25,514 nt of DNA from a virus (Duplodnaviria; Heunggongvirae; Uroviricota; Caudoviricetes), in the IMG/VR virus record IMGVR_UViG_2537562192_000014, positions 1 to 25,514 of that record. The stretch is one strand, 5' to 3'. Position numbers: made by a program. Shown here in pieces: positions 3,001 to 9,000 of the stretch; position 1 is the first letter of the stretch, and every line of letters begins with the position of its first letter.

Positions 3001-6000
3001 CAAATCCTCGCCATTCTCAAGCCAGTTGCGAACGATATCGCCAACCAGATCCGAACTCCCCATGATGGATGCGAGCTGCTCCTCGTTGTAATCCCGTCCA
3101 AATACGGTGTTACTGGTTTTTACGCCAGCCAGATCAGGCATTGAGGGGGCAAAAAACTCGTAACCGCTCAGATCACCACGCTGAATAAGTTCACGAATCG
3201 TTGTAGGCTTGATCAGGCATTCGTAGTACTTCCCCATCCAGGCTGCGAACGGGGTGCCGGAAAGTCCAAGAACCCTGATGTCTCTGTCCCGGATAACCTC
3301 AAGTAACGCACGACGCTTCATGTGTGCTTCATCGATGATCAGCAGATCGATGTTGTCAGGAAACTCACGACGGATCAGCGTGTCGGCACTGGCAATCTGA
3401 ATCAGTCGTGACGGGTCATAGTTAGGGTGATCACGCCATACAAAACTGATTTCTTCCCACGGCAAACCGTATTCGGTGAAACGTTCCGCTGTCTGGTTCA
3501 GCAGGATGGTGTACGGACAGACAAACATCACCCGCATACCACGTTCAACCATTCCGGCAGTGACGAATGCTGCAAGACCAGTTTTGCCAGAGCCAGTGGG
3601 TGCATACATCAGGTACGTGCGATGCTGTTTCCACTGGTGCCGCAGCTGGTTTAAACCGCGCTCCTGAGCAAAGTTTGGGGTGATTTTCAGCATGACGCCC
3701 CCTTGCCATTCGCCGGGATGATATCGATCCCAGCATCGCTATAACTGGTCAGTTTCTTTGGCATTCGAAGCAACACAAAGCCTTCAGTGCCACGACGTGC
3801 CAATTCACGCAATTTCATGACTGAGCGGGGTCGCGGAGAGCTACGATCGATCTCGATAGCCACACTCCCACCAGTTTTTGCTGTTGCGAGAATATCAACA
3901 CGGAAATTTCTGCCATCGATTCTTACTGTGACATTGCTTGCCACATGCATCCCCTGTGACTCAAGGATCGTTACAACATCAGCCAGAAAGCTGTAACGCT
4001 CCTCTGTTCTCAGTGGTACAGTGCTCAGTGTACGGATCAGTGCCGATTTGGTTGCTGCTGACATAGTTTATCACTCAATAGTTAGCTCGATAATCATTTC
4101 ACCAGAAACTATCGCGCGCTTATACAGTGATCTACCTAACCTATGTACCTGCCTTCTGGCCTAGGCCAAGGGATACAGGCCTTACCAACGACTCCACCCC
4201 CTTACCCCCTCCTCGCTTCCTTTCAGGAAATTAGTTGCATGTGAAATTATTTCTAGCGCAACTAACCGCCATCATGGTGTCGGGGGAAACTTCCGTACCG
4301 CTACTGGCGAAAGCATCCAGCCACGGCTGGCTCTCGCGTACTTCTGGACATACACCCGTAACCGGGTGTTGGCGCTCCGTCTTGCCCTGTTGCCCTTCCT
4401 GAACGATACAGGCTCCTTGTCCCACTCTTCCTGGTACACTCTCGCGTACTCTGCTGCAATTTTTACCCGGGTGGTCGGGTCTAGCTGTAACAATTGCTCC
4501 TGTATCCAGTCCCGATCAGCATCACAGTACTGCTCGGGCATAACCGTTTTGATTTGCCTGTTCACTCACACCTCCGATGGGCTGTGTGTCCAGGATTAAT
4601 CATCGCCTCTTACGAACGCAGGGAACGGACGAACCTCTTCCGCCTCAACTGTGCCGTCATCAAAGGTTTTGACGTATATTTCTCGTCCGACGAGAAGCGC
4701 TTTACTGATTGCACTCTGCGCCACGCCAAAGTCCTTAGCGGCTTTCTTTTGGCCGAACCTGTATACGTAATCAGCCAGGGTCTCTTTTTTCATCGCCATA
4801 ACTGACTCCTTCAAAATGCCCATATCATTACGCACAGTTATTAAAATGTCAACACCGCAGATATTTCATTACATATAACCAAAGGTGATATGGTATGAAC
4901 ATGAAAAAGAAACCGTTAACCCCTGAGCAACTGGAAGACGCCAAGCGTCTGAAAAGTATTTTTAACGCTAAAAAGAAAGAGTTAGGCCTGTCGCAGGAAT
5001 CATTAGCCTATGAATTAGGTGTTACCCAAAGCGCTGTTAATCAGCTAATGGCTGGCATCAACGCCATAAATGCCAGCCACGCAGCACAGCTTGCTAAGAT
5101 ACTGAATGTAAAGGTCGGAGATTTCAGTCCCAGCCTGGCAAAATCTATTGCAGAAATGGCGCTCGCAATTGAAGAGCCATTAACTCGTGTCCCCGCTTAC
5201 GAATATCCGTTACTCTCCTGCGTACAAGCTGGCGCATTCTCAATGGATGATATTTCGTACACCGCAAAAGATGCGATTAAATGGATCTCCACCACCACAA
5301 AAGCCAGTGACAGGTCGTTCTGGCTGGAGGTCAAGGGGCATTCAATGACCGCACCGCAGGGTGGTAAACCCAGTTTCCCTGAAGGGATGCTGATACTCGT
5401 TGACCCTGAGCGGGAGATTGAGGATGGCGATTTTTGCGTGGCCCGAATGAATGGCGATGAATTCACCTTCAAACGATTCATTCGTGAGAGCGGTAAAGCA
5501 TACCTGGAGCCACTCAACCCACGATTCGACATGATTGAGTGTAACGAAAACTGCCAGTTTGTCGGAAAGGTCATCAAATCGCAGTGGAATGATGATACTT
5601 TTGATTGAGCTCACAGAGCGATATTAATAACCTTGCCGGGAGATGCTTGGGAAGCGATTTTCTGGCATTATTATCTGAGTTGCCCACAACCTATAGAGTC
5701 TTACATGAAAAAATCATTTGCTGTATTGTTCGTTTTGTTGTCACTGGTAGCTTCGACTCAATCATTCGCTGGTCGTTGCCAACACGACAATGATACCGCT
5801 GCTGACGGCTCTCGTTGTGGTGGTCGTTCTGCTGATTCTCGTCCTGGCGGTGGTGGTATTCGCTAAAAACAAGGCCGCTTTCCCGGCCTTTATTTCAATA
5901 CGTTCAGACAGAATTTTTGGCCTGTTGTTAACTAGTAACCTGAAGAGACGTTTGGGTGATGTTTGGGTGATTTTAGTTGTGATTAACGAAAACTATGGTG

Positions 6001-9000
6001 CAACATCTTATAGTAAATTGTTAATATAACAAGGTATTGTATCAAATGAGCCAAAATCTTGATTCAACACTAGAAACATACATCTCTTGGCAGTTAGAGC
6101 AATTTAAGGATAAATTTTTCCCAAACTGTGACGTCATTGCGTACTACGGTGGCATCTTTCCATGGTCAAAAGAAGTTTACCAGCCAAAACTTGAAGCTAT
6201 TGGTGAGATGGCTAACAGTCGTACCAATAAATTTCTTGTTATTATACTCAATACAAACGGTGGTTCTGTTGAGTCTGTAGAAAAAATGGTAGAAATTACA
6301 AGGCATTTCTACCAAGAGGTATATTTTATCATTCCAGACATGGCTATGTCGGCAGGTACAATATGGTGCATGTCTGGAGATAAAATTTACATGGACTATG
6401 CTTCTTCATTAGGACCTATTGATCCTCAAGTGCAATCGTCGGACGGTAAATGGGTTCCCGCTTTGGGATACCTTGATAAAGTTGAAGAAATGATTAATAA
6501 ATCCAGAGAAGGAACCATTACCCAAGCTGAACTGATGATGCTTAGTCAGTTAGATCTGGCGCACTTGCGGAGATATGAGCAAGCCAGAGAACTATCAATA
6601 GACTTGCTTAAGAAATGGCTTGTGGAGTATAAATTTAGAGAGTGGACAGTTCATCAAGGTAACACAAAACGAGGAAAGCTAGTTACCAAGAGGGAAAAGG
6701 AAGCGAGGGCTAAAATGATCGCTACCGCTCTTAGTGACAACGGAAAGTGGCATTCTCACGGAAGAACGATAGGAATAAACACTCTTATCAATGACTTAAG
6801 GATAAAAGTAGAAGACTTTACATACGATAAAGATTTTAGCATGGCGTTAAAAAATATACATAACGTCATTAATGAATACATGTATAAAACAAATCGACAG
6901 GTTCTTGTTCTGTCTTCTTTCCCTTTTCCAGAACAAAGTGAGTCATAAATGAACAAAGACAAATCCCTGACACAACAAGTGGAAGAAATACTTAGCAAGC
7001 AAAAAGTTAGCGAGCAAGGAAAAATGATTCAATCATTAAAGAACAGGGGCTTGATCAACAAGCCTGTTTTTACTTTGGCTTATGGACCAGATATTACAAC
7101 CTGCCAAATGCACCAATAACAAAACCCGGCCTTGGTGCCGGGTTTTGTTTGCCTCCTGCTCGCCCCACCATTTACCAGTGCGCCGTAAATTCCCCATTCT
7201 TCGTGGCGGTGAGGATGTCAAAGACGAAGGGAACATTAAGCCCCTGTGTGATGGTTGACTTCTTTTTCCAGCGCCTTATTAACAAAGGCGTTCAGTGATA
7301 AATCTTCTTCCATCGCCATTTCTGCTACCCGACGATGCAGTTCTGGATCAAGCCTGACGTTAAACACACCTTTAAACGGGGTATCAGGCTCCTTTCCATC
7401 CTCCACACAAGACTGTAAATACAGCTCAACCGATGTCTTAAACTCCTGTTCCAGTTCAGCTAATGTAGAAGCCTCATAAGTTACCAGGTCTCGAATAAAC
7501 GCCAGTTTTCCGTACAGGATATTATTTTCAAAATCTGGTTCTACTGTACCTAAATATCCTTTATATTTTAGATGCTTCATAATACCCCAGCCTCTTTCAG
7601 ATTCTGTTTAATCGCTTTCAGCGTTCCACCTTTAATATAACTTTCTGGATGTGGGCGATGCATTAATATGGTGTGGTTGATTTCAGCATTGAAAAACCGC
7701 ACTCTTGAGCCCTGCATTTCCTTTTTGACATATCCCAGAGAGGAAAACAAAACGACCAGCTCATCCCATTCAAACGTTTTTTTACTGTTTAAAAACTTTT
7801 CCAGTAGCTTATCTGCTTTCCCCATACCCACATAATCTCATCTTCGCTACATTGCAACTAATTATAGTTACAGGCAGTGTTTTTGTCAAAAGCCACCAAG
7901 CCCGCTGGGTTCTCTTTGACTGTTCGCTGCTTTTCTTGGTGTTATCAGGGGGCTTTTCCCTCACGCCAAATCTCACATAGAGTAACCGGCCTCCGCGTCG
8001 GTTTTTCTTTGACCGCACTCCGCTAACCGCCCCCTTGAAAAATAAATCACTTTAAAAATCAGTTAAGTAATATTTTTTCACCCCCAATAACCACTAACGG
8101 TATTTACATGAAAATCACCGCAAGTTATATTTATTTCAAGCTAGAAACATCGCGCCCTTACACAGGGCTACATAAATCAGTCGTACGGCGCGACTTAACC
8201 CGCCGCAAAATGCTCTTTAACAATCTGGAGCTTTACAGCGTCAATGACCTGTTTAGACCCCTACACGTAAACGTGCTGTATCATCGGGTGCGATCCGGTC
8301 GATGAGAGAGTATCCCCGCGCGAGAGCGAGAACGGCGTGAGAACGGGCAACACTGGCAGGAAGTTGGCGCTGACCAATACAGGGAATGTTTTGGGGTGCA
8401 GGCGGCACCGCCAAAGCATTTCCGAGAAAGGACGGTATTGACTGCGTGTGATGTCGGGGCTATATTTGGCGAACACCTTATAAAACGGGTGTCGGGATTC
8501 TCACCCCGCTGACAATCGAGGCGATACAGACGCGCCAGCGTCTTTTTTTGTATCAACATACACGCACATCTTATCAATGGTGGGCTGTATGGGGCCGACT
8601 TCGGTCGGGCTGGTTCCCTTGATTGCCAGTTGTGAGAACCCTGTACAGTCCACCGCCAGCGAGCTTCTCACCTCCAGCGGTGGTTATCAATCACCAATCA
8701 AGGAGGCTGCCATCATGGCTACTATCTCTCCCCTTTCTCGCCCATCCGTAACTATTGAAAACGGCAATGCCATCACTACGTCAATTGACATCGCAGAGTT
8801 CTTTGAGAAGCAACATCACCATGTTGTTCAGAAAATAGAATCCCTCGAATGCTCTGAGCAATTCTTAACCCGCAACTTTTCGCGGGTTAAATTTGAACAC
8901 CGAGGCAATACCTATAACGCCTATCAAATCACCAAAAACGGATTCGTCTTCCTGGTGATGGGATTCACTGGTAAAAAAGCCGCTGCATTCAAGGAAGCCT

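Follow-up and report, generated by a model that had tools for sequence, protein, structure and literature searches.

Several temperate phages carry exclusion genes next to the repressor gene, namely rexA-rexB of lambda, stk of 933W and bstA of BTP1, with an ion channel, a kinase or a DNA-binding protein as the effector. Lit, the effector of the Lit/Gol abortive system, is a zinc metalloprotease, and ClpP-fold proteases of the S49 type are encoded beside a dedicated substrate or inhibitor in the NfeD (1510-N)/stomatin and SppA/YteJ pairs. A system of phage-inducible islands that Fillol-Salom et al. (2022, Cell 185:3248) reportedly validated combines a hypothetical protein with a PF01972 protease and is listed in DefenseFinder as 'FS_HP_SDH_sah' (hypothetical protein plus SDH_sah/PF01972 protease). 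IetAS is another protease-based system, in which IetS is subtilisin-like (PMC13069673). The present analysis deals with a 25,514-nucleotide stretch of a caudoviricete genome (IMG/VR record IMGVR_UViG_2537562192_000014; hereafter, the window; coordinates are positions within it unless another locus is named) and, within this stretch, with two abutting genes located downstream of a cI-type repressor gene, which encode a serine protease of the SDH family and a protein of 56 amino acids (aa; hereafter, the partner). The region 5600-7200, which includes both genes, is a 100% match to an Stx1a-converting lambdoid prophage of Escherichia coli 2015C-3121.

The reading that we favor, with a probability of roughly 0.55, is that the pair is a mobile module that is expressed in the lysogen and shields it from other phages through exclusion or abortive infection, with the partner checking or directing the protease. 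The full pair was detected in 17 of the 5,426 complete E. coli genomes (0.3%), and each of the six copies inspected is part of a lambdoid prophage and immediately follows cI, with at least four types of cI represented. Among non-redundant loci from IMG/VR prophages and other sources, at least 27 of the 37 same-strand genes that directly precede the protease encode cI-type repressors (21 with S24 and HTH domains and 6 of the Phage_CI_repr type), which are 16-65% identical to the cI of the window. The cI-protease-partner layout was found in prophages of E. coli, Klebsiella, Enterobacter, Cronobacter, Pasteurella and Edwardsiella, and the pair adjoins cI-type repressors of many immunity types in the prophages of the eight gammaproteobacterial genera sampled. 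A preliminary description of this DNA, made from the sequence alone, had asked whether a three-gene arrangement recurs next to cI; recurrence beside the repressor is indeed observed, but the recurring unit consists of the protease and the partner only. The same description placed the genes in the equivalent of the rexA-rexB slot. The correspondence is exact in a lambda-like E. coli prophage (L002), with the gene order cII, cro, cI, protease, partner, terminator, pL-like promoter, N: the pair lies downstream of cI, on the same strand and ahead of a terminator that precedes pL and N, and no terminator was found between cI and the protease. The slot also proved to be the cargo hotspot for which it had been taken, being occupied in phage P13374 by a methylase and a restriction endonuclease, that is, a restriction-modification (R-M) system, and in E. 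coli JNEC-KY204 (order: cI, a 53-aa gene, hicBA, a PanA (Panacea-domain) pair, Rha) by hicAB and the PanA toxin-antitoxin pair, without the SDH pair. One copy of the cI-protease-partner array, at 37.4-38.6 kb, is carried by the 111-kb plasmid pSM107_MCR (NZ_CP130669; L018), which also encodes a complete early region of the lambda type (cII, O, P, nin genes, bet, exo) and may be a phage-plasmid or harbor an integrated prophage.

In this reading, the pair has been captured repeatedly into the repressor operon of gammaproteobacterial temperate phages, at the position of rexA-rexB, and because of its placement in this operon, would be produced in the lysogen together with cI, presumably from pRM. 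The partner would restrain or direct the protease, for example, as a pseudo-substrate with its tail docked in the active-site groove, and infection would free or retarget the protease, which would then act on a phage or host protein. Such anti-phage action may have an underlying logic of the toxin-antitoxin type. In the proposed scheme, the pair resembles Lit/Gol and IetAS in that the protease effector is harmless until infection and resides on a mobile element; however, those systems employ other protease classes and other partners and have no homology to the pair. Apart from the shared location, the pair is unrelated to RexA and RexB in sequence or fold (no Pfam or PADLOC match to either) and lacks a membrane component, and it differs from rexA-rexB, stk and bstA alike in that the effector is a serine protease.

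The protease consists of 300 aa when translated from the ATG at 6046 (303 aa from the TTG at 6037) and contains the motifs NTNGGSVES, AMSAGT and GPIDPQ. In a profile search, it scored 44.1 bits against PF01972 (SDH_protease), above the gathering threshold of 31.3, with profile positions 92-216 of 286 covered, and 57 bits against the NCBIfam equivalog NF047768 (Clp_like_SDH), for which the cut-off is 250. Because the first model is passed and the second score is far under its cut-off, the protease can be placed within the SDH family, on a branch that is divergent. Among 24 homologues with 49-88% identity, S102 (in AMSAGT) and H238 (in WHSHGR) are invariant and D126 (in GPIDPQ) is present in 23; we propose that these residues form a catalytic triad, S102-D126-H238, in the Ser-Asp-His order of the SDH family. 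The identification of an SDH/ClpP-fold serine protease in the preliminary description is upheld by the PF01972 match and by the conservation of the three residues. The AlphaFold model (predicted local distance difference test score, 90.4) has the ClpP/crotonase fold and matches, over nearly the full length, predicted 'serine dehydrogenase proteinases' of giant viruses, with template modeling (TM) scores of 0.5-0.67. No transmembrane segment or signal peptide was detected in the protease (highest 19-residue hydropathy, 1.17), and because there is no hydrophobic segment, the protein is predicted to be soluble and cytoplasmic. When the window copy is compared with a 92%-identical copy, the ratio of nonsynonymous to synonymous substitution rates (dN/dS) is 0.045 in the protease gene and 0.21 in that of the partner, values that point to two real genes under purifying selection. 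Several distant SDH relatives (P0251, P0254, P0256 and P0276) lack a separate partner and carry instead a C-terminal extension of about 100 aa with paired CxxC motifs, which resembles a zinc ribbon.

The possibility that the protease is an ordinary prohead protease or a housekeeping membrane protease of the SppA/NfeD type is hardly tenable in light of these results. Weak profile matches in this direction were obtained (phrog_53, 4.7e-7; NF045542; NfeD/SppA), but the NF045542 score is 24.9 bits against a cut-off of 120, and that for SppA is 20 against 155. The gene belongs to the immunity region rather than to the head gene cluster, the protein matches the structures of phage ClpP-type proteases poorly (TM score about 0.3, compared with the values given above for the SDH proteinases), and neither the absence of membrane-associated features and of an SPFH/stomatin neighbor nor the rarity of the gene in E. 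coli fits a housekeeping function. In addition, NfeD and SppA are membrane-bound enzymes with a Ser-Lys dyad, unlike the predicted soluble protease with the Ser-Asp-His order, and the partner is unrelated to either stomatin or YteJ.

The distribution of the pair extends far beyond phages. In a set of 100,044 species genomes (one genome per species), 487 stretches were confirmed by tblastn, and a profile search of 1.84 billion representatives produced 330 clusters at E < 1e-30. The 487 species-level matches come from Proteobacteria, Bacteroidota, Acidobacteria, Verrucomicrobia, Planctomycetota, spirochaetes, Campylobacter, a Firmicute and one archaeal bin; the species-level loci discussed below derive from the best 80 of the 487 matches, mostly 46-55% identical. 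Outside of gammaproteobacterial prophages, the pair forms a stand-alone islet, and the overall distribution is sparse and patchy, as is the case for defense or toxin-antitoxin modules. This distribution bears on another explanation, namely, that the pair serves its own phage as an accessory regulator of the switch between lysis and lysogeny, with the protease degrading a CII-, cI- or antirepressor-type regulator or a host regulator. Such a function would account for the constant adjacency to repressors across many immunity types; however, it appears improbable given that the pair occurs at 46-55% identity far from prophage genes in Bacteroidota, Acidobacteria, Planctomycetota and other phyla, that it follows both S24-type and non-S24 repressors, and that sister phages with the same cI lack it.

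The partner is a small protein without a transmembrane segment. In its AlphaFold2 model, residues 7-32 form the one helix present, and the extended tail after it carries the conserved motif, which in Enterobacteria reads G-L-I-N-K-P-V-F-T-L-A-Y-G-P. Across phyla, the pattern is G-[LIV]-x-K-K-P-x-Y-x-L-P-x-x-D-T-I-G-[KR], and in the typical build of the species-level loci, this pattern comes after an N-terminal amphipathic helix and a second helical stretch. Homologues of the partner are located directly 3' of the protease in E. coli, Klebsiella, Pectobacterium, Shewanella and Betaproteobacteria. A hidden Markov model (HMM) of the partner recovered it in 47 of 72 loci, and most of the others contain, by eye, an open reading frame (ORF) of about 55-70 aa with a like build; by position, a small downstream ORF is present in 75 of 79 species-level loci across many phyla. 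The pairing of the protease and the partner is obligate, and the conserved unit consists of two genes. As candidate fusions of the two proteins, three representatives with a partner-like C-terminus were examined; two of them derive from internal deletions and the third may be a read-through, which makes for weak evidence, and we set these aside. The representative P0237 reads as an in-frame protease-partner fusion, and a repeat in P0264 that looked similar by eye failed to score.

The two genes part company asymmetrically. Only 4 of the 79 species-level loci have the protease but not the partner, and an orphan partner is found directly after cI in three E. coli prophages, in which the protease is reduced to its last 14 bp; an example is that of E. 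coli strain 48 (L169, 4014-4184), located between cI and hicBA, and the others are represented by hits H72 and H74. This asymmetry would be expected if the protease were harmful and the partner its antidote or regulator, although simple decay could also be responsible. In E. coli CP52E (NZ_CP075731; hits H39/H71), the protease match is in two pieces, with the transposase of the IS3-like element ISEc52 annotated under the match, so that the protease may be naturally knocked out in this strain. These patterns raise the main alternative, namely, that the pair is a toxin-antitoxin-like addiction module that stabilizes its carrier, the protease being toxic and the partner the antidote, with no dedicated anti-phage role. 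The abutting arrangement of one long and one short gene, the stand-alone islets among housekeeping genes in many phyla, the scarcity of partnerless proteases, the orphan partners left after loss of the protease, the one genome in which an IS3-family element underlies the protease match, and the presence of hicAB and PanA pairs in the same slot all agree with it. We nevertheless regard it as unlikely, because the partner has no recognizable antitoxin-type DNA-binding domain (no Pfam domain at all, with only weak, sub-threshold ArgR-like matches), and the near-exclusive placement after cI in prophages better suits a gene that benefits the lysogen. The addiction and anti-phage readings overlap, and many such pairs also abort infection. 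A broader claim, that the pair represents a distinct, phylum-spanning class of protease-based immunity or toxin-antitoxin systems outside the catalogued ones, gated by the tail of the approximately 60-aa partner, is offered only tentatively.

As judged by sequence comparison, the pair is a discrete insert of about 1.25-1.28 kb (approximately 5894-7177), because homology to the E. coli JNEC-KY204 prophage (L164) breaks at 5893 and resumes, by eye, near 7178. Homology to phage P13374 ends at 5622 and resumes at 7986; the cI of the window is 98.7-99% identical in nucleotide sequence to its counterparts in P13374 and similar Stx2a phages. In blastn comparisons, the pair as found elsewhere in E. 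coli matches the window from 5924 or 5958 to 7164 or 7169 at about 92% identity. At the left edge of the insert, a lambda-type cI gene has left a relic of its 3' end (...CCTGAAGAGACGTTTGGGTGA, encoding PEETFG followed by the stop codon), which has an 11-bp duplication and was aligned with the intact cI ends of L002, L021, L022, L074 and L075; in other copies, the same sequence is the true cI end, 73 bp before the start of the protease. Evidently, the cassette moved by recombination through the conserved cI end. At the right edge, the terminator (-21.2 and -23.7 kcal/mol, with z scores of -4.2 and -4.0, on the two strands, and with U-tracts on both sides) is kept together with the cassette up to about 7169, and its equivalent in L002 is at 7169-7188. 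The GC content of 5894-7155 is 0.38, compared to 0.472 for both the window and cI. The separate acquisition suggested in the preliminary description is borne out by the discreteness of the insert, its foreign cI relic and its low GC content, and the features listed in that description (AT-rich DNA from about 5890, a protease downstream of cI on the same strand, a coupled 56-aa ORF and a strong two-way terminator) are all in place (Table 1).

The 53-aa gene, a moron, follows another cI in L164, without the protease, and hicAB adjoins the 53-aa gene without the full SDH pair in L164 and L169; from these arrangements, the DNA of the slot is composed of three independent modules, with the 53-aa gene and hicAB as separate cargo. 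The preliminary description had included one or two small membrane or secreted ORFs in the same cassette as the protease. The 53-aa ORF is real, but it is an unrelated neighbor, found without the protease, and the second, a 79-aa 'membrane ORF' (5790-6029), is probably spurious and a product of the T richness of third codon positions. Out of frame with the 53-aa gene, which it overlaps, it also crosses the hairpin and the cI relic and spans three mosaic pieces. Among the substitutions relative to L164, which total only 4 sites, three fall in codon position 3 of the 53-aa frame, equivalent to position 2 of the 79-aa frame; three are non-synonymous in the 79-aa frame, including a change of V to E inside its 'TM helix', and the pattern favors the 53-aa frame. 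This ORF would encode a near-perfect hydrophobic helix of 23 residues followed by KNK.

Table 1. Features of the cI-proximal region of the window
Feature	Coordinates	Strand	Evidence or remark
cro	4596-4835	-	divergent from cI
cI-type repressor	4895-5608	+	Pfam Peptidase_S24 9.5e-29, HTH_3 8e-10
Variable cargo slot, from cI to the conserved early-left region (Rha side)	5623-7985		P13374 homology gap
53-aa protein with N-terminal signal/anchor segment	5705-5866	+	phrog_14503 3e-37; PGAP 'transmembrane anchored protein'
Hairpin closing the 53-aa gene	5871-5890		-10.8 kcal/mol (+), -16.4 kcal/mol (-)
Relic of lambda-type cI 3' end, left edge of SDH cassette	5924-5975	+	alignment with intact cI ends
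SDH-family ClpP-fold serine protease, 300 aa	6046-6948	+	Pfam PF01972; PGAP ATG
56-aa partner ORF	6949-7119	+	phrog_28875 5e-31; first base directly after the protease TAA
Bidirectional intrinsic terminator, right end of cassette	7122-7148		13-bp GC-rich stem
hicB-hicA toxin-antitoxin pair	7236-7831	-	Pfam HicB 7.5e-20, HicA 1.2e-11; convergent with the cassette
isrK-like RNA	8473-8548	+	Rfam 58.7 bits, above the gathering score
C4-like antisense RNA	8573-8660	+	Rfam 77.1 bits, above the gathering score
Rha-type regulator	from ~8589	+	ORF start overlapped by the tandem isrK/C4 RNA region

Several observations weigh against a protective, lysogen-expressed module. In the window, the 53-aa gene and the hairpin that closes it intervene between cI and the protease, which makes co-transcription with cI uncertain at this locus; the hairpin is a weak terminator on the plus strand and a better one on the minus strand, the only one flagged by the terminator scan. 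A promoter scan of the window identified no convincing promoter of the pair's own. A search of 50,697 deposited phage genomes yielded no close homologue. None of the 5,027 PADLOC (v2) models matched. In the stand-alone islets, the neighbors are heterogeneous and often housekeeping genes, and there is no defense-island signal at the 80 species-level loci, where 3 of the 147 neighbors are type I R-M S subunits; because the islet neighbors show no enrichment for defense genes, the argument from genomic association rests on the prophage slot and not on defense islands. The remote phage matches, Gordonia BeeGee gp31 and Shewanella MuM16-1 p15, have different downstream genes and were rejected as instances of the same module.

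The preliminary description held that the gene combination was not a described defense system. The PADLOC result agrees with this, and full-text searches found no open-access paper describing an SDH/PF01972 defense system; nevertheless, the claim is doubtful given the FS_HP_SDH_sah system. Like that system, the pair combines adjacent genes for a PF01972 protease and a hypothetical protein without a detectable domain, in a phage-related mobile element of Enterobacteria. The difference lies in the location: FS_HP_SDH_sah reportedly occupies the ends of phage-inducible islands, whereas the gammaproteobacterial copies analyzed here are all in prophage immunity regions, and no phage-inducible-island context was detected among the Pectobacterium, Pasteurella, Edwardsiella, Cronobacter and Enterobacter copies. 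The pair is probably a new member of the FS_HP_SDH_sah kind. The Tai system (PMC11364771) was considered as a possible SDH system and rejected because Tai comprises single-gene systems without a protease.

Some features of the surroundings merit a brief record. The hicBA pair shares the two-way terminator region with the convergent SDH cassette and has a promoter (7889-7861) that matches the sigma-70 consensus at 12 of 12 positions. The isrK-like and C4-like RNAs may provide antisense or small-RNA control of early-left genes of the antirepressor type. Further along, the plus strand at 17247-17336 matches the Rfam family sRNA-Xcc1 with 65.4 bits (gathering score, 53). In an Edwardsiella prophage (L167, 12480-16181), a 1,233-aa protein with a reverse transcriptase domain, possibly a defense protein, is encoded just past N, near the cI-protease-partner array.

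If the pair is protective, the exclusion genes that lambdoid and Shiga-toxin phages carry beside their repressors would gain a protease-based effector, which could affect which phages superinfect toxin-carrying E. coli. Strongly conserved, at 46-55% identity from Enterobacteria to Bacteroidota and Planctomycetota, and simple in architecture, the pair offers a tractable case for asking what releases a ClpP-fold protease and how a small partner might silence it.

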